Shown here: positions 4,001-53,959 of the stretch, one piece after another | Numbering within the stretch: position 1 is the stretch's first letter | Layout of the letters: every line of letters begins with the position of its first letter | Assembly (NCBI GenBank): GCA_037379345.1 | Contig: CM074517.1 | Coordinates: 21,948,001 to 22,012,000 of the forward strand | DNA length: 64,000 nt | Direction of reading: 5' to 3' | From: Perna viridis | Taxonomy: Eukaryota | Made by a program: the position numbers and the translations under genes | Notes under the pieces: model-generated | Seen by the model: only the letters and a program-made list of their open reading frames with translations | Databases searched by the model: none | What the model was told of the DNA's origin: nothing

Positions 4001-7000
4001 TAATTGCTTATGATAAGTCCTATCAAAGTCTTCTTGAGTCAAAATTGTTGCATAACTCCTTCTTAAATTTATTGCCCTTGAAAGGCATAATTTAATCATG
4101 TGAGTGATTCATGCTCCTGGGAGCCTCTTGTTTTATCTCGTTAGATTAATTACACAATTTATGAGAATGCTTCTGTTTAGATCAATAATTGCTTGGTTTT
4201 TGTTTTGTTTTCAAATTAAAGTTGGAATAATAAAGGCTGGATTCAGGCTCTTTAGAGCCTGTTGTTTACGAAATTAGTCATATCCTGGAAGCTACATGTA
4301 CATGTTGTACAATGTATAATGTTACATATGAATGATTAGACTTTACATCTTAGTACATGCAGTTAATGATATAAACTAAATTATTACAACGGAATTGTTT
4401 CCAGCACATTTCTTCTTATTTTTTCACATTCCACAACTACTAGTAGGAGGTACAATTCACTAATGATAATGATATGAACAGGAACAGTTTCTGGTGTGCA
4501 TGTATTAATTTTATTTTTAGCTGAAGAATATGACAGGCATATGGCTGGAAAGAAACACAATGAAAGACTTCAAGCCTATCTCGAAAAAAAGAGACTTGCT
4601 GAAAGCAGCATTTTTGTGAAAGGTTTTCCTGCAAGAACTGAGGAAAACGAAATGGCTATGTATTTTGGGAATTTTGGAATGGTCAGTAAAGTTGTATTTG
4701 AGGCCCCAGACAAGAAGCAAAAGGTAACTTTAAGCATACATGTATATATATAAGCTAAAAGTAGCAGAAAGTTTTGAGTTTTCTCTGATCAGTAATTTTG
4801 TTGTTACCCTTACTTGTTAAATGTTTTCTATCTACATCTTTTGCTTCTATCCAATGTATATCAAATAGGGGTATTTTTTGTTTTTCACGGCTTTCTAACT
4901 TTTATGCTTGGTGGGCAAACAGCTCGGGTAGATTAATTTACTTTAGAATGTAGGGGTACTTTTTGTTTTTAATGGCTTTCTAACTTTAATGCTTGGTGGG
5001 CAAGAGCTGTGGCAGATTAATTTACACCAGTATGTCTGTTGGATAACTTAAAGGATACATGGCTTGTCATAGTATCTTCTACAGTTTTTTGCCAAAGATC
5101 AAACACTGGTACCTGTGATTTCAGAGGGATTGATTGTTGTATTGTAGCCAATCAGAAGTTTGGGATGGCCAAACCATGAAATTTGGTTCCCAAGAAAAGG
5201 AGATTTCCTTTGATGTTTGTACTGAAAATCTCAAAACCATAAATTCAAGAATCCACAAACTTGTGTTTCTTCCCTAATCTTCTAAAATTGGTATCTACGA
5301 ATTAAGTACTTTCACAGTAGATGGCAATATTGGAAATGGTGCACTGCAGCAGAAACCCAGGAAAAAGTAATTTGGTTAAATCCAGCTATTTTCTTTCCTT
5401 TCAGCAAGTACCACCAAGATACTGCATCGTAGAATTCCAGAAAAAAGAAACTGCTAAAAATGCTGTAGATTATGAGCCTCACATACTTAACAGTTGTCGC
5501 TTGACTGTCAGGCCTAGAAGTTTTAAAGAACTTAAATTAACACCTTATTTCCCCTGGGAAAAAGAAAAAGAACAAAAGGAACAAGCAATGTTGCCCTGGA
5601 ACCAAATGGGAGGGGGTGATATGGGGGCCGGGCCTGGAGGACCACCTGAAAGTGGAATTCTTGGTAGAGGACCCCCTGGTTTTGGTGGCCCCGCTGGTGG
5701 ATTTGGTGGTCCCCCTGGAGAGGAGCAGTTCTACATGGATGATTTTGATCAGAGTGGCAACTTCAGAGGATTTGGTGGTCGTGGAGGTAGGAATTTCTGT
5801 ACAATGTTGTGATACATGTCCTTTAGGATAAAACTAATGGAGAAAAAGAATACCAGATGTATATGCCAACATTTTGTATTTTTTTATATTGGTGTGTTGC
5901 TATTGTTGTCATTTGTTTTGATTTATTATTATTTCAGGAATTTATATACGATATAATACAATATATGTATAAATAAGAGTGTCTCATAAATGTTACTCTA
6001 GGTCATTGACTATCATTGACATATGTTTTTTTTTTTAATCTCTATGCTTAATGTTGCTTAAATTTTAAATAATACTTAATGTACTCTCCAGGCCCTGGTT
6101 TTGGACCAAGACCTGGATTTGGAAGGGGAGGACCTCCATTTGGTCGTGGGGGTCTTGGTGGTCGTGGAGGTTTAATGGGCTCAGCACCTGGAGTTTACCC
6201 AGGTATGAGCTTTGGTCCTCCAGGTGGTGACAGACCACCACCTAAACCATTACTTGACCTAAACACTGGAAGTGGTTTTAAGAGAATGAAGGGAATGCCA
6301 TCACTGCCTGGTATGGGAAAAAAAGCCAGAAAGGGTAGAGGAGCTGATGATCCACAAGATCCCTTGCCTATCTCTGTACCAGAACTAAAAAAGAAATTCT
6401 CAGAGAGTACATGCATTACAGTAAGTAGTCTTAGATCATTTCATGCTTAGGTGTTAAGTCTCCCACTATTTCACGAAAAATTCAACAATCTCCTGCCTAC
6501 ATGCTGCATTAAAGCAGAAGATTTAGCCAGAAATTTCTCTCAGATTATTATAAATTTGGGCTTAAAATATAAGTAAATTACTTAATTCTTATCAAAACAA
6601 ATTCAATTGTATATTTGTACGTAGGTGTTAACCTTTATAAAATCTATAATGGGAGATTTCCCTCTCATAGCTTTTGTCAAAGCAGGGGATCTAATATATC
6701 ATGTTAAAAGTACACGTCACTATATAATAAATAATTTATTTATGTTAAGTAAATTACGACTTAAGTAAATTATTTATTAAATTGTGACATGTGCTTTTAA
6801 CATAATATATTCACATATTTACAAATATAGTCAACACCTGGCCCGGTGGACCTTTAAGGCACCTTAAAAAATTCAGCATTTTCATGATTGTCGTGATCAC
6901 TCTCATAAAATAAACTTTAGTTTATTTAGGCTTCATGTAAATCTTATTAAGAAAGAGGCCAAATTGATATTTTGTATGCTATTTTTAGATTCAGTCCCAG

Positions 7001-10000: not shown

Positions 10001-13000
10001 CGTAAACTTAAAACTGTGGGAAAGTAAATTGGTCACAGAAAGTGTGAAAAAAGATGCTGTGAAAATTTCTGGGTTTACAGTACTCCTTGGAAAATGAAAT
10101 GATTTAAAGTTTTGTATATATATATAATCAGCATAGGTATGATTGAGGTATCATTTCCCTTTGTTTCCAAATTAAGTGATGAATTAGTTGATTTATTGTC
10201 ACTTATGGATAAAATTTAAGATTCAATTTTATTATTTTAGATGCCAAGACTGTAGTTAATGGATGGGACTGTTCATTTGTGTCTTCTAATTTTATTCCAC
10301 CTTCTCACAATGTTCAGACTTGTGGTGAGTATAGAAAAGTGAAATTTTCCATTAAAATACACAAAAGGCTTGTAAAATTATCATAAAACACAGAACAAAT
10401 GTGTGTGTGTGTTTTTTTAATATTTTTTAAATACCTGATATATGTGCTGTTTTTGATAAATGAGATGTTTTAAAATACATAATATACAATAAACAATTCA
10501 AAGCTAAAATTAAGGAATTGTCAAGTTAATGTTCAGAATTATCTCCCTTTGTGTACATCCTTTGTAGTAAGCCATTACTTGATAAACAAGTTAACAGTTG
10601 TTTTTGAAGCCGTCTTAATTTGATTGCATGGGTTTACTATGGATGATGTACATATGTACTTAAATCATTTGTTTTTACAGAGGAGCTGCTTGCTGGATTC
10701 TTCAAGTTCTTCTCACAATTTGATTTCAAGGCCAATGCTCTAAGTCTCAGAACTGGCACTGTTTTACCAGTTGCTAAGATTACACTTGAAAACACCATGA
10801 AGGTAACTGCAACCACAGAATTTCCTTGGGCACATGTGCCATATGTGTACAATGACACATATGCAGATACCAGGAAATGGTTACTGTGGCTATTTTATTT
10901 CTATGCATTTTGTACACATGAATTTCCTTTCCCCCAAAGTGTCTTGCAGTACATGATGCAAATGTGTACAGTTGCACATGGTTCCATAATGCAGGATTTT
11001 GGCATTAAATATCTAAATTGTACACAAATGAAATTTACTTTATTATTTTGGCATTTTTATGACCCTGATGTGTATGTAGTAAAAGTGTGCTAGCTTCAAA
11101 CACAACAATCGGGCATTTGATGTTTTCAAAATTATTGAGCACACAATCCCTATTTAATTTTTAGAACCTGGCATGTGTAGCTCTGTGTACTTGTTACATA
11201 TGTAATACGGGGAAAAGTACATGAAATGAAAACAATAGCATTTCAGTGTGGTTTATCGTCATCTGTTCTGTAGATTATTGTGAGAGAGTGGAGTTGCTTT
11301 CTGTAGCATTCATAATGTGCAATGTTTGCAATAGAAAATATGTTTCATGAAAAGCCACTTATTTTGCTGGATTTGTTTGTATTTTGGAGAGAAAACAAAT
11401 TTGCTAAAGTGCTTATTGTAATTTTTAATGTAAGGTTCTTTGAACTTAAGATGTTTTTAATTGTGTCAACTTACAGCTTTCTTTATGGTACAAAACTTCT
11501 TCTTCAGGATTAAAGAAAAATCTTTATAACATTTTTAATTCAATCAGTGTTAATTGTAAAAATATCACATTGTATTTTCAGGTGCAAAATATTGACCATA
11601 TTATTGTTTTTGTGATTTGTTTTTCTTGATTGTCTTTTATGAAAAAAAGAAAAACATTCTTCTTGCTTTCATGATATGTATTTCAATAAAAGAGAAAAAC
11701 AAATTTTAATACTCCTACAAATTTATATTTAAGAAATGTCTTTTATTTTCCACCAGCAATAGTAGAGAAATTAAAGCTGTGTTAAAGTGCTGTTTCAGAA
11801 TTTTTATTTAGATATTTAGATGGAATGTACCTGTTTTAGAAAACCTGTTCAATTTGTAATTCATAAATGTTATTATTTGCTGCTTACTAAAACACTTTTG
11901 TACATAAGAAATTTTAATTGGTGCTTAAAATGACCCAATTATAAAGATTTTGAAGAGTGGTCCTCAAAAAAGCATAACTCTTCTTAAAAGTATTTATTAT
12001 GTTCTATTTTGCTTGCTTTTTCTATTGTCTGAACTAATATTGAATTACTTACAATGATTCAATTCTTCACTTCCTAAGACAAGATTAGTGTCAGAAAATC
12101 AGTCAATAGTAAAAGTTTGCTGTAATAATTTTAGATGGTCAGAGGATATACACCAGTAAACATTCCTTTAACCTCTATGATATGTTTCAGATTGGTCCTA
12201 TCAACATCCAGGACCCATTTGTACTTGACCACAATGTTGCCCAGAACATTAACGAAACAATCCGAGACCTATTCATACGAGAATTAAGTATAGCAGCTTA
12301 CAAGGCAGAGAGGTGGCAAGCCATTGAGTTTGCCCAGACCAAGAACCTTATCGATGTCTTGGATGACAGGATTCCAGAAGGCTTTGATGAGTCACTAGCC
12401 TTGTCTGGTGTTCCAGGAATGAAGCTTGGAGAGTATCAGTTTGTTGTGGAGCTGAAGGCTCCTTCCCTGTCACCACAAATGCTGCGTTCATTGGAGTCTG
12501 AAGGTGACCTTTATACAGCATGGAGCAAGAGAATGATTAGCTTTATATACAACGCTATAGAGAAAGTTTTAATGTTTGACTGTGAGGTTATTGCTACAAA
12601 TGTGTCTGATATTGCTGTAAAATCTAGAAAATATGACCATGCTGAGAGGTCGGAAAAGAGCCTACAAAGAGGAATGAAACGATCAAGGCAGGCCATGGAA
12701 GATGGCGGAGAAGGTGAGATTGGCGGTAAGGGTGAAGACGAGGGTGGAGCCAAAGGTGAGTGTGAGAGTGAGGGCACTGCCATGAATGTTGATCAACAGG
12801 AAACATATGATCCGAAGGCAGAGTTGTATAGTGATGCTCAGTTCTTTATAGACATGAATTCTTACATTATGTGTAGAATTTGGGCTGAAAGAAAGAAGAT
12901 TGGTAATATACTGAAGGAGCGTGGATACGGAGAGAGTATTGAGTTGGAACAAACAATCTCTGAGAGATTATACTATGATAACCATTATGATGGAAAGTCA

Positions 13001-13177
13001 CCAATTATGGAAATGAGAATTATTTTGAAATCAATGATCTTGAACAACCGAGCCGAGATCTTAGTTGATGTCTCTGGTCCTCCAGGTCAGAGTGAATATC
13101 ACTGTGTATATCATTACCTAAAGAAATTTGTTCTCAAGATGGTCGACAAGTTCTTTGTTCCAGGCACTGACAAATGA
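1039..13177 (+). CDS. TUT1: U6 snRNA terminal uridylyltransferase / Star-PAP, 11 coding exons, ~958 aa
   Basis: Exons 1039-1114, 4521-4723, 5405-5786, 6092-6420, 6989-7103, 7389-7498, 7927-8165, 9595-9824, 10241-10324, 10681-10802, 12191-13177; all GT-AG, phases consistent, 2877 nt in total. Domain order is that of TUT1: matrin-type C2H2 finger (CDIC...HMAGKKH), RRM (SIFVKGF; YCIVEF), nucleotidyltransferase core (FGSSVNGFGLKGCDMD; CDLSIDN), SNYALTLMVIYYLQ, GWDCSF, nucleotide-recognition motif QDPFVLDHNVA, then a C-terminal KA1-like region. Confidence 0.93.
1206..1440 (-). mobile_element. 3' non-coding end of a Penelope-like retroelement, in TUT1 intron 1
   Basis: Highly similar to 52933-53190, which continues directly into a Penelope-like RT frame. 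Other copies at 8497-8635, 39652-39840 (opposite orientation) and 42455-42780. Confidence 0.75.
2171..2848. repeat. Diverged long inverted repeat (~140-bp arms), possibly an old foldback element/MITE
   Basis: 2171-2310 (...TTTTGCATTAATTGGAGGAGGGGTTAGAGATCA) is the approximate reverse complement of 2700-2848 (TGATCTTTGACCCCTCCTCTAATTAATGCAAAA...). Confidence 0.7.
4866..5025. repeat. Two-copy tandem duplication, ~85-bp unit
   Basis: TAGGGGGTA.TTTTTGTTTTT.A.GGCTTTCTAACTTT.ATGCTTGGTGGGCAA...AGATTAATTTAC occurs at ~4866 and ~4951. Confidence 0.8.
8275..8796. mobile_element. MITE-like element with TAC(A/T)GTAAA...TTTACAGTA termini, containing a nested Penelope-like 3' fragment (8497-8635) and an AAATATAAATCA-type repeat array
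   Basis: Imperfect terminal inverted repeats. Related termini occur at ~9881-10082 and ~58524-58702. Confidence 0.5.
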
Positions 13178-17500: not shown

Positions 17501-20440
17501 GTATTATGACATACGGGATTCGTCGGCAGTTAGTCTATTACGTTTTCGTGGTCTGGGTTGATGTCAATGTACTGAACGTAGTTTAGCTCTTTCTTATAGT
17601 TTTTATAATCGGTTTTGGTGTGGTTTCTTTTGGTACATTTCTGTTTTAATCGAATTGAATACTGCCTTGGCTTGTACTTTTGTAGACGATTTTAATAAAA
17701 TTATATTGCCTAAACAAATTTTAAATTAATTCATTTTAAAGAATTCAAATAATTACCTTAAAAAGATAGAAATATATTTTTAAAGATATTAGTTGCTTTA
17801 ATATTTGACTTTTTTTACAAAAGCAGAAAAAAACTAAAAAAAGAAACATCACATTATTATTATATTATTATGTCTCTAGTCAATGATGTCATTAAAAAAT
17901 ATCATCCAATCTTTTTATTGGAAAAAAGGTAAAATACAGGTAAATTTAAACTCTTTTGAGAACCCAATAATCCCTAATTTTAATTGATGTTCTTTTAGTC
18001 TAATAATTAAATGTTGGAGAAACGTGAACACACCCATGCCGTTCGCCTAGTGTACAAAAGAGCCTACAGAAAGACTATAGAAGCTGAGGCAATCAACCCA
18101 TCAATCGACTGTTGATTGCTTGTTTGCCTCGTCAGTGTTCTCACGGTACATAGTCATAAATGGATTCTTGTGAATAAAAAGGACTCTTTCAGAATCGCGT
18201 GCAGGACATTTACGGATAATTTCCTGAAAACCAATGTATGTTCTCTAACCATTGGTATGTTTTGTATGTAAATATTTCTCATATTATCATATTCTATATA
18301 TGTCAGACAGTAGTTCGACGGAACCTTCCGATCATTCATTTTTTCCCTAAAATTTATAGTAATAAAAGAGCTTCGGGTAAATCTAGATAGCATGTTGATT
18401 TTATAATGACACAGGTGATCTTAGATCAAAATATCGAATTCAAATGAGTATTCCTAGTCAGTTCATGATTTTTGTGACTTTGTGGCATTTTTGTCATTCG
18501 GTGCGAAAAATTACTTCATCTTAAAGAATCTGTTGCCAAGTTTTTATTATTATGAGGTGTTTTCTTAAGAATCAGTAGATTTTTTTTAATGGAAATGGGT
18601 AAGATCATCAAGCAAATACTGTAAGTTACAAGTAAGGAATATTAAACAAAAAATATTAAAAGATGTAAATGTGTATGATAAAATCGATATGAACTCCGAA
18701 GAGATTGATGGACCTTGCTTTGTGCATACTTAATTGGATGACTTATAGAAAAATATACCTTCATTGGGCTAAATAACATGTAAAAAACTTCAATTTTCCG
18801 TGAAATAAATGGTTTCTTTCCTGTGCTATAATTTATTGTTGATTTGTACTGTCATCAGTTCCGTCTTCCCAAAATAATCCGAAAATGTCCGCCCCGTGAC
18901 CCGAAAGAGTCCTTTTTATCCGACAGATTCCTTTATGGCTTTGTTCCAATTCCGATTCCAATTTAAGAAATATGCTGCGTCCTGTACTCGCATGCTTACG
19001 GTTGAAAAAACGGGCCGAATCCCGCCTACGAAAAGGGGATGTATACCTCGGGGTTATACCCTCGTGTATGAAATGAAACCTGATGCTTACAAAATCTTAC
19101 TTGAAATGATATATTTACTTTTGTTTATTTCTATAGATGTTCCCGTTGTAAGGGTTTCCTGTCTTTATTATATTACTCCTCTTGTGACATTGATGCATAA
19201 GGCTGACAAGCGGGAACCGAATCAAGGCACGCATGCCAACCGACTATTGCAGACCCCGGATGATCAACAAATATCAAAGGTGCTTACTCTCGGTCCGTGA
19301 ACTGTCAGTCAAGCAGAAATACACCAGAAAATATTCAGCCCAAAGCATAGTCCATTACACTATTGAGACACTGACATTAAAACTTTTTTAATTTGTCATT
19401 GTATAATGTCAACGGCCAAATATATAAGAAAATCGTGAACACCTAAGCAGGTAGTTAGTCATAGTGTGCTGTGAAGTTGCTGAGCTCTTTATTGTAGATT
19501 TTGATGTCCAAATATTTTGAAACATTCAAATATCTTTCAATTCTGCTTTCTGAATAAATTTAAAACATTTCAATTGAATATTAGTATTGTAGTTTGAAAT
19601 TTCCAATGCATTTAAAAGGAACCATGTTTGTTGTAATTAATTTATCAGTGTTTTGTTGATAACAAAAAAAAAATACATTATACTGATATTCTGGATTTTA
19701 ACAAGGACACAAAGGTTTATTATCAGAGGCCATTGGACTGCTGTTTTATATTAATCAGTGTCGAACCTGTCAATATTTGAAGAGAGATAACATTAAGTAC
19801 AACGTCCCCGTTCCATTGATATAAATATACCATATCAACGACGATATGACAAAGTTGGGTGCTAACGATCTTGAATTTAATGGAAAATAAATGTTTCCAA
19901 TGGTCAATTTACTTACACGTCGAGAGAAGTATATATTTTTGTTTCATTTTTGTTTTGAGCAACGACCTTCACAGAATTAATTGTACTGTTTAAAATTCCG
20001 ATTAATAGGTTCCAACAGGAGAAATGTATTATGATGTAAATTAAATTTAGCGAAAGAAATAAGATTGGAATGTCCAATAGGCAAAAATCTAGAATAATTA
20101 TTGTTGATGTCAGTAACGTACCATCCGATCGGGCATAGGTCTTTGTCAGGATGAACGTTAACCTTTGTTATGTCTTTCATGCTCTGGTACCCCTCTGACC
20201 ATGGGCCTATGACCATAAAAGGCACTGTAAGCGTTATACATGTTGATCTAAGTTTATTCATTGAAAAGCTATTTAATATTAATCCATAACAAACAGGATT
20301 ATTTCCTTCTTATATTTAAATCGAATTGATATAAAATGTTGATAGAGTACATTTGTTCATAGTAGAATGTAGAAACTCGTGAATACTAGAAGTTGTCAGA
20401 AAAAAGTACTGTTCTTATACACGAAGTATACAGACACAAA

Positions 20441-22141
20441 ATGGCTACAGGTCGACTCGCTAAAAACATTACCGAGGACTACCTTACTTGTTCAATTTGC
20501 TTAAATAGGTTTCGAGAGCCTAGGACACTTCCATGTGAACATTCATTTTGCCTAGTGTGTCTCGCTGATCATATCAAAGACACACAAGTGAACGAAACAT
20601 TCTGTTGTCCAATGGACAGATTGGAAATCAAAATACCAGAACATTTTACTGATCACTGGGAATGTGCAAATTCATTTGAGAGCGATGTACTTCTGTCTGG
20701 ACTGATTCGGGCTTTGACTGAAAGTATTGGTACAGCAGGAGCAACAGAGAAGTGCCGAATAGATGAAAAATACGAATTCTTTTGTTTTGGATGCAAATCT
20801 GTAGTTACAGCTGAAGATGCGGTTGAAAAACACAGAAGGTCGACGTGTGACTGTGTGAGCCTTAAAAAGGCTTTGAAACGTTCAATGCCTCAAATTGCAA
20901 CTTTGAACAAAAATCTTGAAGGTATGGTTGTTAAGACTAACAAACTAAGACAAGAATCACAACAACGCACAGAAACTGAAGCAAACAAAGAAGCTTTGAA
21001 CGAAATAGCTAGTTTTGAATCAAAATTAGACAATTTTTATAATCAATGCAAAGCTAATCTTACATCTCTTAAGGTAAAGCTACAAAATACGGATTCTAAT
21101 GACACTGAAGAAACATTAAATAGCATATCATCCGACGTTAGAAAAAAATATGATAATTTTAATGAAACTATGGACAATGAGAATGTTGAATCAATTCTAA
21201 AAATGTATGTGGAGATTTCAGAAGAAATTCCAGCTCTCCAGAAACGAATTGACGAAGTGCCGAAGTCGTTTTCCCGACGGAATAGTTCAAAGTTCGTTCC
21301 CAACGACGACCTGCTAACGATATTTGAAAAGAAAGTCAACTGTGGTCATATTCATACTATAGAGCTGAGTAACTTCCAAGCCAGATCAGACCAAGTTGCC
21401 TTTAATTATTATGATGTAACGATCATTGGGAGGTATTTGGTCGTTGTTGATGGTGAGAATGGCCTCCTGAAACGGTACTTGAACGATTGTACGTATGTCG
21501 ACAGTCTTCGTCTGTCTAATGTCTGTAGAATAACAGCTCTAGGCGAGGACGAGGTTGCTGTAACCCGATTCGGTAAGAAGAAAATAACCTTGGTTTCAAT
21601 AGGTCGTAAAATGTACGTCCGGAGTCACATTCGGACTAAACGGTCATATATTGGGATAGCTTGGCTAAATGACGGTGGATTTGCAGTTTCCTATTACGAT
21701 GGAGAATCACCTCCAGGAATCGAAGTGATAAGTAATGAAGGGAAACTTTTAAGATCTATTTCTGGCCAACCACATCCAAATGGCGGAAACCCACTTTTCG
21801 TCTGCCCCATGTTCATGACAACAACGACTAGTGGTGACATTGTTGTGTGCGACTATAGCGATACCAAAAATATCTTCTGCTTCAACCAACATTTGGAACC
21901 CCTCTGGTGTCACTCTCTCGAGTCTATGCCATGTAGTGCGACGTGCGATAGATTCAGTCTTTATGTGACACTCCCAGAGCAGAATGAAATTATTGCATTG
22001 TATCAAGAGACAGGAGAAAAAATACGAACGATAGTTACGGAAACAGACGAACTTGATAGACCGTATGCCACAAGTTGGTTTAATGGGGTGTTGGCCGTAA
22101 CGGAAGACCAGTCGGACAAAATTCATTTGATTCATTTATAG
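20441..22141 (+). CDS. TRIM-NHL-like putative E3 ubiquitin ligase (RING, degenerate B-box, coiled coil, beta-propeller), intronless CDS, 566 aa
   Basis: First ATG at 20441 (ACAAAATGG). RING: CSIC...LPCEHSFCLVC...CPMD. B-box-like segment: CRIDEKYEFFCFGC...KH. Then a heptad-rich helical region and NHL-like blades (CPMFMTTTTSGDIVVCD; LDRPYATSWFNGVLAVTE). Confidence 0.88.
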   Translation: MATGRLAKNITEDYLTCSICLNRFREPRTLPCEHSFCLVCLADHIKDTQVNETFCCPMDRLEIKIPEHFTDHWECANSFESDVLLSGLIRALTESIGTAGATEKCRIDEKYEFFCFGCKSVVTAEDAVEKHRRSTCDCVSLKKALKRSMPQIATLNKNLEGMVVKTNKLRQESQQRTETEANKEALNEIASFESKLDNFYNQCKANLTSLKVKLQNTDSNDTEETLNSISSDVRKKYDNFNETMDNENVESILKMYVEISEEIPALQKRIDEVPKSFSRRNSSKFVPNDDLLTIFEKKVNCGHIHTIELSNFQARSDQVAFNYYDVTIIGRYLVVVDGENGLLKRYLNDCTYVDSLRLSNVCRITALGEDEVAVTRFGKKKITLVSIGRKMYVRSHIRTKRSYIGIAWLNDGGFAVSYYDGESPPGIEVISNEGKLLRSISGQPHPNGGNPLFVCPMFMTTTTSGDIVVCDYSDTKNIFCFNQHLEPLWCHSLESMPCSATCDRFSLYVTLPEQNEIIALYQETGEKIRTIVTETDELDRPYATSWFNGVLAVTEDQSDKIHLIHL

Positions 22142-30624: not shown

Positions 30625-33600
30625 TATCAACTTTCTGCGATTACAGAATCATATCTACAAGCCCAGGTGACGTAGTTTTGACTGCGTCCAGTGAGTTTGG
30701 TGCTCCAATAAAGACGCAGATTCACGGTGCATCAAGAGGTGTCTTGAACTACACCCAGTTTACGTCAGCTGACGGAAAAACATACCATGGGGCATGGACA
30801 GCTGCCGTCAATAATGATAAACAGTATATCCAAGTAAATAGACATAAAGTTTTATCCTTCTCCATACTTACTTACGTGTGTTGGTTTTCTTTTTTTTACC
30901 ATATTAAAGTTGTTGCTTTTTATATAATGCTTTCAACCAATACTTCAGTAAATTGCACTGGTTGATGAAAACACATGCAAATAGAGAACCACCGAATCAG
31001 AAAGCTTGTAACAATTCAAATTGAATTATAATAAAAATAAATACCAGTATGTGTGACATCAACGATTCAACAAGGCAGTATGTATTCTTTACTAAGATAA
31101 AGAATAATTTGGCCATTTCGGGACATTATACATATATATTGCCTAATTGATACTTATAGCCTGACATTAAATTCTCTTTTAACACAGATACAACTGAAAA
31201 AGGATTACAAAATAACTGGGGTTATAACACAAGGACGGAACGGATGCTGCCAGCAGTGGGTAACCAAATACGAGGTTTTCTATGGACAAGATTGTAACAG
31301 CTTCAAACTACTGGACAGTGGCAATGGATCTGTAAGAATTATAAAGGGATATGATGTAAAACACAAATTGAATGTCGGTTGATGAAGAATATGTAGCAAA
31401 ACCTGTCTTAACCAAATCTCTTCAGAGTGAATAATTTGCCTGGTTAAGATAGTTTTTTTTTTTGGTTAATATACTAGATTTAATAATTGATTGATTGATT
31501 GATTGTTGGGGGTTTAACGTCCGAGCAGCAATATTTCAGCTATATTCAGACGAAAATGGATGATAAATGGACATGAAATGGGATGATAAAATGAAAAATG
31601 GGATGGGACACAAGGACAATGGGGTCGACAAATTTTGATTGCCACTGGAAATAGGGAGAGGTGGGTATGGTCGGGCAATTTAGCCTCCTGTGGCGGAGCC
31701 CTATGGTTCATACTCCGGGAGTATACTACAGTAGGGTTCTGTGGTGCGAGGAACGTGGCATCTTTCCCAACACAGTGCACCCCTATGGTTTGCGGTCAGG
31801 TTTTCCGTATTACAGCCTGACAACCCCAGCGTGTAACACACCAGGGGTACCCCATTCCACCACCTGGGGCACACAACCCAGTTGCTCTGTGGGCAGAGCG
31901 CCCTAGCCCCCGGCTAAGGTTCTGAGCACTATTTAGTCCCCTTTTACGACAAGCTTAGCGCTGCTGCAGACCTATTCTTTTGACACCCGGACCTGCACGG
32001 GTCTACTAGATTTAAAATACATTGAAAATGATATGAATTATTTTCCGAAGATGTCTAGTTTAGACAGGATACTGCTTTATTTAGTGTTCGATAAAGACAG
32101 GATTAACTGTATTTTGATTTTAAAATTTCTGTATAACTTACAAAACAGTCGTGTACATGTTTTTTTTTAATAATTTCTGTGTCCACTCAATAATTGTTTC
32201 TTTGGTATTTCAGAATTTTTGACATAATTGTCATTATTTGTTGTTCAGGTTGTGTATACTATAGTTTGGTATCACTTTTTTTCGGAAAAAACGTGAATCT
32301 TAGAAAATCAAAATTACATATGTACACGCAGTTTCCGCGTGATATTCTGTCCACTCACGTTATATCGGTAAATTTCCTTCCATGAAGACGCCGACAAACA
32401 TGGTTAACAGTTACAATTTAAGCTTCAATTTTCCACTCTATGAATAATGGGTGCATTATTAATTTTACGTGGTACTCGTTCAAGTAAGATTAATTGATTA
32501 TTCGTGTTAACCCTTTAACCCTTTAGCATAAGTTCTATAAATTTCAGATTTTTAAAGGCAATACGGACGAAGATACTATGGTTACAAATATGTTCCCGAT
32601 ACCTGTGACTGCGGGATGTGTTCGAATCGTTCCAAAAGAGTGGAATGGTCAGATTTCGATGAGATGTGATATCATTGGCTGTCAAGCCCTAACGACGCCT
32701 TCGACAACGACAATTTCGTCTACCACTGTGATCACTTCAACAACACCTAAGACTACAACGTCATCAAACAGACCTATTATTCAAAAGACATTCTTACCAG
32801 GTAATTTGTAGAAAAGAATTTGTCAAAATAAACAATGAAAAACCTGTCCCTTAAAACGATCAATGGAACTTTATTATACCCTTTACTGCCTCCATATATG
32901 AAAAAGTGTTTTTCATTAAACAAACCAATACTGGTATGTCAGATGTATGTCAGATATCATAGTTTGTTGTTCACATTTATCTTTTCTCTAATTGATGCAT
33001 TTTGACGTACTTTCATATCGATAGTGACCACTTTAATATAAGAATCATTCTCAGTAAATTGCAATCTCCAGGTGCCTGTAGCAGTAACCTCTTGGCTGGC
33101 AACACCAATACAACTTCTACTATCACTGCATCTAGCATCAAAGATAAGGGGAGTGTGCTGGTCAGCTATGACCCAAAGAAGGCTTTTCTATTCTCAAAAG
33201 AAGATACAAACCACTCACAAACCAGATACATGGGTGGATGGAGCCCAAGCACATCAGACAAAAACTCGTTCATACAAGTAAGTAATATCAGTCAACTCAA
33301 CAAGAGTAAAGAGAAATCATAACGTTCCAACATTTGAAGATACATATTGTGGAATGCCTTTCTAGACGAAACAGAGCTTTCTCAGGGAATTGAATATTTG
33401 CTGCTCATTTACATCAAGTTTCGAGTCAAACGCCAATCATTTTTTTCTAATGTAATACCATTTAATTATTGTACATGTTTTTTTTATATATTTACAGTCA
33501 GTGTACGTTATCAACACTCCCAATATTATTTGCTTTATTGAGTTTGGGACGATTTTGTACTTTGTTTTCTGCACGTATCTGGCGTCGTCTTTGTCTCCTG

Positions 33601-45600: not shown

Positions 45601-48600
45601 CTAAATAATACCAAAGAACACAGAACATATATGTTGTATGGGAAAGCTTTCTCTCTTCTCACAAACAATTATAGATATTACATAGATACATTAATTGATT
45701 TATATAATTCAGATATTCAGAAATAATGGACTCCAGAGGACAAGCTGATAAGACATTACACATACGGAAAACACTAAAGTAGATAAAAACAAGCACAAAC
45801 AAAATGAAAAGAGTAAAACAAAAAATACAAATACACAGAAAACCAAAGAAGAGTACTCCGATTTTTCGTTAGTAATGATTGGTCACTTATTTTCACTGGT
45901 TATTCGTTTTAAATCGGAATGAGCTTACGATAAAATAATTTTCATAGAGAGAATTTAATAAATAAACAGCAATCCTAACAATTTTTCCAAGGGGAAATTG
46001 GTAGGCCCATCAGTTAAAAAACCAATTGCAAGACAAACGCACAATATGTTTCTGTCATTTTAATGCTACAGGCCATGTTTGCTGTTAGTATCAATACAAT
46101 TTATTTTAAAATAACGTTTAATATATCAGTGTAATGCGTACATACCAAAATTTGTTCGGCATGAAATGGTATTCAAAACTTGTTTTGTTTGATGCTTTTG
46201 TCTTAAATTTCAGATAACAAGAATTCCGCGATTGGCTTAAAAAATCCTTCAACAACAGTACCGACGTTATCATCTGTGTCAACCACACAAAATTCAATTT
46301 CATCGACAATATCACCTTCACCTTCACCGATAAGCGTTTCAACTAAAACTACACAGGCAACATCGTCTGTACCTTTTTCACCGACAAAGTCAACACCGAA
46401 AACGTCAATGACATCATCAATAGTGACATCGTCAACAACAAAAGCAACTAAATTTTTCACCTCTACAGTGACAACGCCATCTTCAACAATATCAGTGACA
46501 ACTCCAACAACATCAAAAACAACACTTTCAACAACAAAAACTCCTACTCATATTACTCACAACGTACTTCCGACTGGCAAAGCATCAAACTATAATTCTA
46601 AGGATCCTATAGATTGCAAAAGAGCTTTACTAATGTTTACATGTTTACATCCTATAGTAAGAAGGCATTGTTTTTATTCCTGTAATCCAAAACAAGCAGT
46701 TATCTCAGCAATTTTTAGTAGCACTTCATCACCTGTGTCAGCTAGTTCCTCTATTACTCAGTCAAGGGGGCAAGTCAATAGTGTACACTATTCTAGTGCT
46801 ATGTCTTTGGCATCTTCGCAAACACCGTCTATCGTATCGTCAGTATTGACACAGTATTCTCCTTTAGTGTCTTCTCAACAGTTAGTAATTCAGTCTCATA
46901 CATCGCATGGTTTTTCAACACCTTTGTCACCGTCTTATTCTACAATCGCTATGAAATCATACTCACCCAGTCAATCTACTTCACTACCCGTAAAACCGTC
47001 AGCCAGTGCACCTACAACGCACCAATCTACTATCACATTGTCAGCGACCCCATCTTCTCTAATTCAAACGTCATCATCTATACCGAGTATGACTTCTTCT
47101 ACTATGATCGTAACTACACCATTGCATCATTCCCATATAGTCTTACCTACTGGACAAGCATCAATATACAGTCCTCTTGATCCTTTAGACTGTAAACGTT
47201 CACTGTTGAAGTTTTCATGTAGCTTATCAATTATTGCCAAGCACTGCCCAAACTCTTGTTCTAAATCTTCAAGCATCGTCATCTCATATTCTCCTAGTTC
47301 AAGCGTGGTAGCTTCAGCTCAAAGCTCAAAACCTACAAACAGTATCAGTAATGTTGCTTCTAGTTCGAGTATACACACAAGTTCCAAACCTTTCAATAGT
47401 ATAAGCTCTAGTTTATTTGTACCAGTTCCTACTTCAAGCTTGTATACTTCAAACATGCTTAGCCGTAGTGTTTTTAGTACAAATATAAAATCTGGTAGTC
47501 CATATTTCACACAAACACACCCTTTGTCATCTTCTTCTACTTTTTCAGCCCAGCTTCTGTATATGTCGTCAGACAGACTGTCAAGATTAACTGCCCAAAC
47601 CTTAACTTCAAACACAAACATACCTTCATTATCAATTAATTCAATTTCTACTTTGAACCAACAGCTATCTTCTACAAAACCTTTGATTTCACAGTTTTTC
47701 AGCTCTTCGCCTCACCAAAATACGGCATTATATTCGCGTCAAGCAGCATCTCAACTTTCGAATGTTCCAATAATCTCGAGTTCTTCCAATGCCCAGCCAA
47801 AAAGTAGCCATATCTCTTTATCTACTGTTTTGTCAACAAATGGGCCTGGAAGCATACTATCCTCTATCAGCAAGCCTCTATCTTCGCTTGCGCAACTAAA
47901 AGGTATATCCGTGTCTTATTCACTGAACTCTTTGCCTATTCAGACTACTGTTAGCAGCTCCAGTGTCTCATCTAATGTCATTTCTTCATCGCTATCAAAA
48001 CCACGTTTGCCTTCATTTAGTTTCACTTCATCCAACGTTCAATCTGTATCATCAATTCTATCTTCCTCTCAAGTTGCTTCTACGAATAGCCTACCACCAA
48101 CAACGTTTGGTGTGCCGTCTTCCTTAAGTAATTTGTTGTTGTCGAAAAACATTCAAACCTCACAAGTGGCCAGTTCTATGTCTTCGTCGTCTTACTCACA
48201 AAGAAATTTGATTACCAGTACCACATTGTCAACGCAATCTGGAGTTTTGGGATCACAATCATTCCACGGTATTTCACAAATATCTGGATTAGCGTCGCCT
48301 TCGTCAAGCGCTTCTGTCTCTACCCTTGTATCTGTTAGCTCTGATATTATCTCTTCTTTGTTGAATAGTTATTCAAATATATTACCAAGCTATGCAGTTT
48401 CAACAAATAGCGTGTCCGCTTCGACAATCAACACGCCATACATCAACACAAGGTCTTCTAAATCGTCACTAGTATCTGATCTCTCATCACCACTTATTTC
48501 AAATTTATCAACACTTCATTCTATTGCTCCCTCAACATATCCTACTTTATCACCCTCTGGAAAAAATCAGCCTTTCTTCTCAAGTTCTGCTAATGGGATG

Positions 48601-50160
48601 CTTAGTTCCCCCTCTATCAAACCGTCCACTTCTTCGCAAATTCAAAACGTACAATCTTCAATATTTAGTAGTTTAATTCCTAGCTCTGATGCTATGAACA
48701 GTGCAATTTCACCACATTTCAGCCAATCTTCTGTAATTCTACAGTCTTCAAATCCTTCAACAAGCTTGCTGTCTCTAAGTTCTGTTATCTCTACTACTAA
48801 CCTTATATCAAATTTCCAATTGCCAACGACACTTTATAGTTACACGTCTGCTCCATCGACTTCAAGTACAAGTTCTTCTGGAATGAATAGCAAGTTGTTA
48901 TCATCTTCGTTTTTCTCTTTGGTAAGTTCATCTTCAGTGCATTCATCTATGCAAATGCATGTGTCTTCTATGCAAAAGATATCAATTAAGCCCCTTTTTA
49001 ATTCTGCTGTTGCTACGACTCAAGTTTCTACTGATATTAGTCCTTCAACCACTGCCACTCCATTTCCATCAATTTTGACAACTCAACTTTCCAATGTTAT
49101 ATCTTCTAAACCATCACTACTCCCCATTGCTTTATCTACTGATTCATATATTTCTTTATATCCTAGTCTTCAGCCTTCACAAAACCTTTATCTGTCGTCA
49201 GCACAACCTGGAATATCATCCTTATTTAGCAGCTTAACAAACTCAAGTCAATTTCCGTACACCTTGTCATTTTCATCTCACCTAGTCTCTCACTCTGCAC
49301 CACCAAGTTCACATTCCTCTTCAATTAGTATTGCATCGAACAGCCTACTTACACCACCATCTAAGTCGTCTTTTTCTCACCCACTAAGTACTGGAATACC
49401 TTCTTCAACGGACTCCCTGACTTCCTTGTATGGATCAATTCTATCAACCAAACCAGCAGCTTATGCTTCTACCCCCCAACATATACCTCTGTCTGCTGCT
49501 GTACAACAACCCAGTGGTCAGCTGTCTGTTACTTGTGTTCCTATCTCGTCAATGTATGCGACACCATCAAGAAGCCTTATGACAGATAGTTTGCTTTTGA
49601 TGGGCATATCAAGTGCCAGTATGTCAATGAGTATAGTACAAACACCCAGTAGCAATGTACAGTTTCAAACAAACTCCCCTTCAGTAAGTGGGATTTCATC
49701 GACTATGCTTGGATCATCACTGATTATAGCAAGTTCTTGCTATACTTTTACAGTTTTTCCAACAAGCGGTGTTAACGTCTACTTGAACTCTTCTCAAACT
49801 CTCTTAACATCAGCGTTACCAACCAGCTTTACTTCAGCAAATCAGATGTCAACATCAGTGGGAAATTTGGTTTCTAGTCCTTTTCCTACCAGACAAGTAA
49901 CTTCAATGCAAACATCTTCGCTTCCTTCACAGACTACAACTACAAGATTGCCTGTGACACATGTAGTTATTCCAACCGGTGTGGCTGGAATTTATGACAA
50001 CAGGGATCCAGTAGATTGTAGACGTTCTCTCACAATGTTTTCATGTACCAATCCAATTGTTGCAAGACATTGTCATTATTCATGCGCATCCCATCCCGCC
50101 AGTCGACCAGACATCTTTGCTGTTCCAAGAGGAAGTAGTGCTGGGAAAGGTAAAAAATAA
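30625..50160 (+). CDS. Large, probably secreted protein: four discoidin (F5/8 type C) domains, Ser/Thr-rich mucin-like region and three four-Cys ShKT-like modules (~2,100 aa)
   Basis: Exons 30625-30833, 31188-31331, 32548-32800, 33072-33277, 36172-36315, 37234-37504, 38514-38725, 40151-40294, 41475-41933, 42234-42368, 45211-45355, 46214-50149/50160, with consistent phases. Each domain shows F5/8C hallmarks: TASS, G(G/A)W, (Y/F)(I/L)Q, (I/V)TQG, WVxK(Y/F), FxxNxD, RIxPxxW, MRxxLIGC. The CDS either stops at 50160 or splices to 50549-50574 (ANRDLVNG*). Confidence 0.88.
31393..32111. mobile_element. Old MITE (AAACCTGTC...GACAGGATTAACTGTA termini) interrupted by the 31484-32003 retroposon
   Basis: Imperfect inverted termini at ~31393-31410 and ~32092-32111; the two halves rejoin at the duplicated TACTAGATTTAA. 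Confidence 0.5.
31484..32003 (-). mobile_element. 520-bp non-coding retroposon (SINE-like) with (AATC)n tail and 12-bp TSD
   Basis: TSD TACTAGATTTAA at 31472-31483 and 32004-32015. The - strand 3' end reads ATAGCTGAAATATTGCTGCTCGGACGTTAAACCCCCAACAATCAATCAATC. GC content is much higher than the flanks and several hairpins are present. Confidence 0.85.
34730..34918. other. Assembly gap (run of N) inside an intron of the discoidin gene
   Basis: 189 consecutive N. Confidence 0.99.
39652..39840 (+). mobile_element. Diverged Penelope-like 3'-end fragment
   Basis: CGGTGCACCTGGGTCCAT...AGTTTTTAGTGGAGTCCG...CTTGGCTCCTTGATAACTCTTT is the reverse complement of the 1206-1440 repeat. Confidence 0.65.
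42455..42780 (-). mobile_element. Diverged Penelope-like 3'-end fragment including the RT C-terminus
   Basis: ACATACACAACAAAGAACAT... and GACCATATAACTTTTGTAGTGGTGACTTTAATCTTGTA align with 53010-53360. Confidence 0.6.
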
Positions 50161-52932: not shown

Positions 52933-53880
52933 AAAGAGTAATCAAGGGAACTAAGGTTATAGCGGTAATCAAAAGAATGTAATCCAGAGCAAAAATCAGA
53001 CATGGAAAACAAACATACACAACAAAGAACATATAGTAACTAAAATCATACACTACAAAGAACATAGAGTAACTAAAATCATACATACAAAGTAACAAAA
53101 GTAAATGAGCAACTCGGACTCCACTAAAAACTGTAAGTATGGACCAGGTGCACCGGTAGGGTTAGAGTCCCCTGCTCTTCTAGAAACACCCGCCGAGTTT
53201 CTCATAAAAAGTAAAGTTCGGGGTAGACGAAAGAGGAAAGGAAAACTATGACCCGTTGAACAAATCACTTTTCATGGAGCAGATGGATATACAGTAACGA
53301 TCCACGAGTTCATGATGACGACCATGAAACTTCTGTAGTGATGACTTCAATCTTGTAGCAACATAACCTTACTAAAGAAGCCTATTTGTTAGAATTCTAG
53401 CGCGATAACAAAAAAGTATGCGTAGTCCCGGCAAGCTCTGGCATAACGTATGAGTTTTGATATGAACACTCCATACGCAGGTGCGAAAGGGATATTGTCA
53501 CAAATGAAAGGATAATTGATAATTTTGAATGAAAAGTCATCACGTTTGTCGTAAAGTTTTGCCAAAAGTTTTCCTTTTCCTTTACCATCGATTTCTAAGT
53601 GTAGGTCAATATATAAGGCTGACTTCACAGTGTCTGTAGTATCCTTTATCTCAAGTTCTTTGGGGTCGATACGATGTATTAAATCCCCAAAATTAGGATT
53701 GTTTAAAGATAACATGTCATCTATATAGCGGAAACAGAGATTAAAGGATCTAGCTAAAGGATATTCTTTATTTTGGATCAGATCAGCTATAAAGGCAGCC
53801 TCATAAGAGTGAAGGAATAGGTCAGCAAGAGGAGCACAATTTGTTCCCATTGGAATGCCGACCGTTTGTTTAAAAATTCT
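52933..53880 (-). mobile_element. 5'-truncated Penelope-like retroelement (RT C-terminal half plus 3' UTR)
   Basis: QTVGIPMGTNCAPLADLFL...FRYIDD...LYDKRDDF...PAYGVFISKLIRYARAC, continuing after a frameshift as LKSSLQKFHGRHHELVDRY...* and ending at 53246. No GIY-YIG endonuclease follows the RT. Confidence 0.88.
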
Positions 53881-53959
53881 AGCATTTTGTAAACATCTTC
53901 TGTATATTTGGAAGGTGATTTGGAATTATTTCTTACCAAACATACGTGACTTACAAAGT

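Follow-up and report, generated by a model that had tools for sequence, protein, structure and literature searches.

The minus strand of a 64,000-nucleotide stretch of the Perna viridis genome (the window, whose positions are used throughout) carries a non-coding retroposon whose first bases are predicted to fold into an H-type pseudoknot, both stems of which covary across lineages; the same arrangement recurs shortly past the last open reading frame (ORF) of contigs from unrelated RNA viruses. The covariation, the uniform 5′ ends of the copies, and the lack of a hammerhead core and of HDV topology agree with the proposal of an earlier note on this DNA that the head is a functional structured RNA outside the hammerhead and HDV consensus. 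As to what the structure does, we tentatively favour, as possible rather than probable, a reading in which the head is a new, predicted exoribonuclease-resistant RNA (xrRNA) fold that would trim host co-transcripts to unit-length retroposon RNA.

The retroposon has a defined 5′ end

The element is an LP-type SINE of 520 nt at 31484..32003 (- strand), delimited by genome matches and by the end-to-end alignment of copies. It lies within a 12-nt target-site duplication (TSD) whose 5′ copy (32004..32015, -) and 3′ copy (31472..31483, -) are 100% direct repeats of each other, and the first base of the element is therefore 32003. The 3′ tail (31484..31555, -) consists of a predicted stem–loop and short tandem repeats, as aligned with the tails of the LINE copies L318/L319 described below, which it resembles in outline only, with partial identity. 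Both variable TSDs and short tandem 3′ repeats are thus present, as in LP-SINEs. At 31690–31790 (-) the body contains words that we take to resemble CORE and V-domain SINE bodies, which suggests that a tRNA head was replaced by an LP head.

A search of the 723-Mb genome with the head gave 2434 first-look candidate copies, all 40 of those scored being matches, and 39 element copies could be aligned end to end. Because a head query favours intact heads, the genome was searched a second time with 181 nt of the 3′ part of the element. Among the 30 copies found from this side, 22 start at stem S1 of the pseudoknot, and the other eight comprise two internal deletions and six scattered 5′ truncations. 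Fourteen of the 22 full-length copies have a clear TSD, which is separated from CCCG by two bases in 10 of the 14 and by 0, 1, 3 or 4 in the rest. The 5′ end is therefore defined to within a base or two; the view that the retroposon truly begins with the fold is upheld, and the alternative that the copies are simple truncations of a longer element fails. Of 83 SINE copies, 64 begin with G, and a G also precedes 10 of 23 LINEs with an HDV-type head (see below). SINE copies are clustered, and are nested within one another and within LINE copies (L012, L024, L319–L321).

The window contains several other open frames. A 583-aa frame at 20390–22141 (+), intronless in the stretch, encodes an N-terminal RING finger and a coiled coil (Pfam) and is TRIM-like. 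The 1317-aa frame at 46207–50160 (+) is Ser/Thr-rich and mucin-like, with three short Cys-rich repeats and a weak Pfam match to Crisp (E 6e-4). A 178-aa frame at 53389–53925 (-) has no Pfam match; its YIDD motif presumably marks a decayed reverse-transcriptase fragment. Two long open frames at 5321–5812 and 12113–13177 (+), neither with a Pfam match at E ≤ 0.01, are probably exons of one host gene.

The head is predicted to fold as a pseudoknot followed by a conserved hairpin

Stems S1, S2 and S3 were all found on the minus strand where the earlier note had placed them. Read 5′ to 3′, the 5′ strand of S1 (31998..32002) pairs with its 3′ strand (31989–31985; 31985..31989, supported by pairing in the window copy and by covariation), and 87% of S1 cells are paired in the alignment described below. 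The 8-nt S1 loop (31990..31997) is at the same time the 5′ strand of S2 (95% of cells paired): 31997–31990 pairs with the S2 3′ strand at 31972–31965 (31965..31972) in 8 of 8 pairs, two of them G-U in the window copy, as had been predicted. One of these two is peculiar to this copy, where C has changed to U at 31970; in 64 of 90 family heads that position is C, which leaves a single G-U.

Between S1 and S2 runs a linker of variable length (31973..31984), which ends in AGAAUA. This hexamer is invariant in 16 of 16 rows, which were chosen using that word, and it also occurs in six distinct viral loci chosen without it. The linker would likely make minor-groove contacts to S1.

Downstream, the two strands of S3 (31956..31962 and 31925..31931, pairing 31962–31956 with 31925–31931) vary in sequence among lineages and enclose a near-invariant 19-nt core (31933..31951) made of a 4-bp hairpin with a UAARAGG loop, followed by UAA. 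A script found an S3 helix of 4–7 bp in each of 16 sequences, with an uncertain register in several, and S3 folded with at least 4 pairs in 7 of 9 sequences. For the region that S3 encloses, the earlier reading stands for S3 itself and fell short inside it: the 4-bp inner hairpin was missed, being invisible in the window copy, in which 31939 carries a private change from C to G. The C is present in most copies and reads, 1405 of 1453 reads in one class, and completes the hairpin, whose predicted pair probability was 0.5–1.0 in nine sequences. Across animals and viruses 18 of the 19 core bases are fixed, a fixity that is partly due to how the sequences were selected. The UAARAGG loop is, going by the T-loop consensus, presumably T-loop-like.

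Both pseudoknot stems covary

Folded alone in a model that leaves out pseudoknots, the 89-nt head has a z-score of -0.76, which is not unusual. Because single-sequence stability is ordinary, the case against chance is the covariation across lineages. In an alignment of 12 sequences (A4), 93.5% of cells are paired, compared with 73.7% after shuffling, and none of 500 shuffles reaches the observed value. Both sides change in 10 of the 13 pseudoknot pairs (3 of 5 in S1 and 7 of 8 in S2), with 42 cells changed on both sides vs 14 in shuffled alignments. The covariation score is 0.599 vs 0.196 for shuffled alignments, and slid registers reach at most 0.128. Covariation in both pseudoknot stems, which the earlier note had proposed as a check, is thereby confirmed.

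The scope of these figures is set by the alignment. Two of the 12 rows come from the window family, and the rows were fitted to a model containing S2 and not S1. A4 omits four sequences that had been given a wrong automatic register (L072, L185, L179, L061), as well as L068 and L009; five of the 16 seed sequences, bulged or decayed, were omitted from the covariation alignment. An independent script run on all 16 sequences found pairing in 70 of 80 cells and in 108 of 128, more than in any of 10,000 partner shuffles, and these counts include the wrong register picks for the same four of the 16 (L072, L185, L179, L061). Within the window family, an A-U to G-C swap in S2 occurs in 2 of 90 heads. 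The 5′-most S1 pair is paired in only two of the seven rows that have letters there. Three of the four inner-hairpin pairs never vary, so that this hairpin has no support from covariation, and its invariance comes partly from the selection of sequences.

The motif lies behind the last gene of RNA viruses

A pattern for the 19-nt core that left out AGAAUA and both stems matched nine stretches of viral_contigs, of which seven have the whole arrangement and represent six distinct lineages. Viral RdRP genes identify some of these contigs (RdRP_4 in L043, RdRP_3 in L044 and L046), and L040 and L041 carry viral capsid genes. In all five RNA-virus contigs the motif stands in the coding sense, 5, 10, 23, 73 and 100 nt past the last ORF (a mechanical 123-aa call in L044) and 27–119 nt from the contig end, where contigs may be incomplete. 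A second motif copy follows in tandem in L040. The sixth lineage, L042, belongs to a DNA virus: in this AT-rich contig of 212 kb the motif is intergenic. On L040:252-3905 (-) an S-domain capsid gene lies upstream of a 1161-aa ORF with no Pfam match, which is likely a divergent replicase. Looser patterns in viral_contigs (51 and 22 stretches) added no carrier, and 46 loci that matched a pattern only score at most 27.4 bits with model R1, in which the inner hairpin is one column off, vs 50–74 bits for intact copies.

RNA viruses have no DNA stage. A motif placed 5–100 nt past the last ORF of five RNA-virus contigs therefore acts as RNA, and a DNA promoter cannot be the whole story. None of the motif carriers listed is itself on record as RNA.

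Outside viruses, a metagenome scan gave at least 123 stretches, mostly many-copy repeats in ORF-poor DNA, and among the matches listed we read these repeats as animal host DNA. Five of 18 matches in prokaryote genome_contigs are strong (L175, L178, L179, L184, L185); we attribute them to eukaryotic contamination because ORF-poor or microsatellite-rich DNA or LINE ORFs adjoin the motif. With this eukaryote-like context in all five, bacterial membership of the motif was rejected. Among 50,697 phage records there was no blastn match to the motif. The L185 motif (locus L185:2979-6041) precedes the ORF1 and the APE-domain ORF2 of an I-group LINE by ∼600 nt. The scaffold combines bacterial-looking genes with this LINE and has no N gap, and it is probably a chimeric assembly or host contamination.

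A related LINE carries a predicted HDV-type head instead

A search of this genome with the L185 ORF1 uncovered a young LINE family (all 150 candidates that were scored are matches), which is 41% identical to L185 in ORF1 and 43% in ORF2. It is an I-group LINE whose copies (L318:501-6576 on G000:C8, and L319–L321) are about 99% alike, with an ORF1 of 491 aa and an ORF2 with APE, RT and RNase H domains. None of 30 loci of this family has the LP motif at its start. Its first 140 nt instead fit an HDV descriptor (P1 7/7, P2 8/8, P3 2/3 and a 96-nt P4) that none of 200 shuffles fits, and we take this head to be a candidate HDV-type ribozyme fold. Rfam misses it, which shows that the sensitivity of Rfam is limited here.

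The L3 and J4/2 strands of the LINE head read UGUCGU and GACUAA, the words that form both ends of the invariant LP core, and in the LINE head and the LP motif alike they stand in the same order inside a closing helix. When the LINE head was shuffled 200,000 times, both words turned up in order in 104 cases. A further LINE family with a UGUCGU/GACUAA HDV-type head was not found among 34 viral loci or the 121 metagenome loci listed, and viral_contigs held no relatives of the LINE ORF1. A possible LP-headed LINE in this genome was sought with a pattern designed to avoid the SINE and rejected, since all five matches were SINE copies. The LP motif thus heads the L185 LINE and an HDV-type fold heads its relative here, which amounts to a module swap. 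On the simplest reading the two heads would be interchangeable 5′-end modules, and the LP core may have descended from, or converged on, the HDV core.

The head is a known sequence and fits no described ribozyme or xrRNA family

Matetovici et al. (2016; PMC4758252) described SINEs of molluscs that begin with ∼70 bp matching the 5′ ends (68 bp) of Nimb-17_LMi, I-3_DR and RTE-9_CPB, and named them LP (‘LINE promoter’) SINEs; the promoter role was presumed, and the paper states that it needs testing. Judged by its sequence, the window head is this LP head of mollusc SINEs and Nimb/RTE LINEs, and is thus already published as sequence (PMC4758252): its ∼70 bp share homology with the 5′ end of Nimb-17_LMi in a by-eye comparison with the ‘Nimb-17 homology’ block of Fig. 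S2. In both, a LINE-derived head of ∼70 bp stands where a tRNA head would be, TSDs and short tandem 3′ repeats are present, and the scallop alignment in the Fig. S2 block has the same stem order and core words. They differ in interpretation, a DNA promoter being presumed there; the word ‘pseudoknot’ occurs 0 times in the main text of PMC4758252, and the sections covered mention neither viral copies nor covariation. In row 348 of supplement 4 of that paper, Pan_3, within an alignment headed by the tRNA-derived Lsa_3, begins with the motif. In the literature searched, which mostly did not extend to subscription papers, figures and Repbase notes, LP terms occurred in PMC4758252 only, within the parts of each source covered, and neither the fold nor its viral copies were found described. 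The sequence itself is known as a SINE/LINE head; that it forms a covarying pseudoknot RNA in common with viruses is a reading that these searches did not turn up in print.

The earlier note's remark that no A or B box is evident also holds: ARAGORN finds 0 tRNA genes, and the near-majority copy L009 has no B box and a single loose A-box match, at position 142. A tRNA-derived SINE was accordingly rejected. Rfam gives no gathering-score match in the window and, at E ≤ 10, two chance plastid matches away from the head; the six viral loci have no match at E ≤ 5. Twister, twister-sister, pistol, hatchet and hairpin ribozymes were set aside with these searches (the element at E ≤ 10, the six viral loci at E ≤ 5), and the hammerhead since L009 lacks CUGANGA and Rfam gives no match.

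Like the HDV-like ribozymes of R2, RTE and L1Tc, as described in the parts of PMC3774820 and PMC5786205 covered, the LP motif occupies the first bases of its element and goes with precise 5′ ends. Unlike them, it has no P3, no P1 partner behind L3 and no nested double pseudoknot, and it puts an H-type pseudoknot first. The P3 closing the 7-nt L3 forms 0–1 of 3 pairs in 16 of 16 sequences, and an HDV descriptor that includes the P1 partner has 0 matches in the window copy, L009 and the 16 sequences, and fits L318/L319. Since P3 and the P1 partner cannot form in any of the 16, the LP motif is not an HDV-like ribozyme. The words holding the J4/2 catalytic C and the constrained A are nevertheless present and conserved, with the C predicted to be paired in the inner hairpin. 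No HDV permutation appears in the sections of PMC10085705 covered.

One close xrRNA class is that of the plant viruses ST9a, RCNMV and PLRV (class 3 in PMC12397905), in which, according to the covered part of that paper, a 9-bp pseudoknot is combined with a T-loop and Xrn1 stops at the base of P1. The LP motif shares a stem–loop whose loop enters a long pseudoknot with 3′ sequence (the covarying 8-bp S2, vs 9 bp in ST9a), a T-loop-like element, a 5′ end at the base of the first stem, and a viral UTR or intergenic place (a 3′ UTR start in 5 of 5 RNA-virus contigs and the intergenic site in L042). In the plant-virus fold, however, the T-loop is apical and docks a stem bulge in J1/2, with an AGY motif in J1/3 (PMC12397905, same sections); neither is found here, where the 8–9-nt loop is fully used by S2, S1 has no bulge, the T-loop-like loop sits in a downstream hairpin and the hosts are animal retroposons. 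Coremin xrRNA, in the sections of PMC10520033 covered, is likewise a short sequence-conserved hairpin in the 3′ UTRs of unrelated viruses, dsRNA viruses included, but there the 4-bp hairpin, with a YGAD or YGNNAD loop, comes first, and a spacer and a second hairpin lie behind it. It was rejected, as the LP loop is UAARAGG and the pseudoknot lies 5′ of the hairpin. In its working the head would resemble either an xrRNA or a 5′ ribozyme, but it fits no described family of either.

The family is represented in RNA-seq reads

In two RNA-seq runs of one study, 5760 and 10039 reads fall on the SINE family, with a sense-strand bias per bin of 1.2–2.2× and 2.3–6.4×, assuming the usual library type, and the flanks of the window copy have almost no depth. 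No read-start pile-up at the head was reported from these two runs, and 394 and 497 reads, their strand not given, extend beyond the 5′ edge into unrelated DNA.

Possible roles of the head

We see two RNA routes to a precise, stable and uncapped 5′ end, self-cleavage and exonuclease stalling, and tentatively prefer the second. SINE copies would be co-transcribed from host promoters, and the 5′–3′ exonucleases Xrn1 and Xrn2 would digest the intronic or read-through transcript until they stalled at S1. An I-group (Nimb-like) LINE protein, recognising the 3′ tail, would copy the unit-length RNA that is left. A stall of this kind in the viruses would spare a short 3′ non-coding RNA. On this view the module would play the part that the HDV-like ribozyme may have in the sister LINE, yielding a 5′ end that is precise, stable and free of a cap, with no promoter needed; according to the covered part of a review, the R2 ribozyme fold itself guards against 5′ exonucleolytic decay (PMC13708176). 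Stalling is preferred over cutting because the viral copies occupy sites of the xrRNA type, one of them in tandem, where a cut would remove the 3′ end of the genome; because the 5′-most end of S1 varies, as a catalytic site would not be expected to; and, by analogy, because the plant-virus xrRNA, in the part of PMC12397905 covered, has both a long pseudoknot and a T-loop, and brings Xrn1 to a stop at the base of stem P1.

Several observations speak against a block. The fold matches no described xrRNA class, reads do not pile up at the head and hundreds run on into the flanks, and the identity of the invariant words with the HDV L3 and J4/2 strands points to catalysis. A G as first base is expected from a copied cap, as in L1. 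The frequent first-base G of the SINE copies is what a copied cap would give, but it is not specific, being found with HDV-headed LINEs too.

The same invariant words also speak for a second reading, which we consider somewhat unlikely: the head would be a new self-cleaving ribozyme with an HDV-derived core, made of the L3 and J4/2 strands with the catalytic C, inside S3, which would serve as P2, an H-type pseudoknot replacing P1/P3, and a cut just 5′ of S1. The HDV-type fold at the same place in the sister LINE, the shared words in the same order within an enclosing helix, and a core nearly fixed across animals and viruses, if partly by selection, are all consistent with it. Annelid-like copies that change UAA to UGA keep the C and the last A, residues constrained in R2 ribozymes in the covered part of PMC3774820, and RNA viruses do carry small ribozymes (PMC13725137, in part). 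Yet the P3 and P1 pairings are missing in all 16 sequences, the would-be catalytic C is predicted to be paired, and the P1 partner is the element whose pairing sets the cut site in HDV-like ribozymes (PMC3774820, same sections). The shared words are known from one LINE family, and the viral ribozymes in the covered sections of PMC13725137 are mostly in 5′ UTRs or paired. What places self-cleavage second is the position of the viral copies directly behind the last ORF, the usual site of an exonuclease block, where a cut 5–23 nt past the stop codon would sever the 3′ end. The wider form of this reading, in which the two HDV catalytic strands grafted onto an H-type pseudoknot make a new ribozyme class that has spread to LINEs and SINEs as well as to RNA viruses and one large DNA virus, and was swapped with HDV-like heads within one LINE clade, seems to us unlikely.

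That an internal Pol II promoter sets the 5′ end, as PMC4758252 proposes in the sections covered, and that the fold serves, for example, to bind a translation factor, the ribosome or the LINE protein, its viral role being that of a 3′ element for translation or replication, is in our estimate improbable. The sense-biased expression and the first-base G would fit such a promoter, and the L1Tc 77-mer offers a precedent for a dual promoter and ribozyme (PMC3383444, in part). But promoter activity of the LP head is a proposal only in the part of PMC4758252 covered, the bases at the start site differ among lineages with their pairing kept, and a promoter leaves unexplained both the fold's exact start at the first bases and its exchange for an HDV-type head. 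A DNA-level promoter alone, or an inherited sequence without an RNA role whose pairing is incidental, would suit the ordinary folding energy and the identity by descent of most copies in one genome, which therefore add no covariation, but this is largely refuted and very improbable given the threefold excess over shuffles of cells changed on both sides and the motif in RNA-virus contigs.

How non-LTR elements without a Pol III head obtain precise 5′ ends is partly known and involves internal promoters or ribozymes. If the exonuclease block is the true reading, animal genomes would encode an xrRNA, thousands of times over in this one, which would give retroposons a third means of setting their 5′ end, one shared with RNA viruses; if the head cleaves, it would represent a new class of ribozyme, with an HDV core rearranged by nature. 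In both cases it would supply a compact module for protecting the 5′ end in RNA-templated gene insertion.
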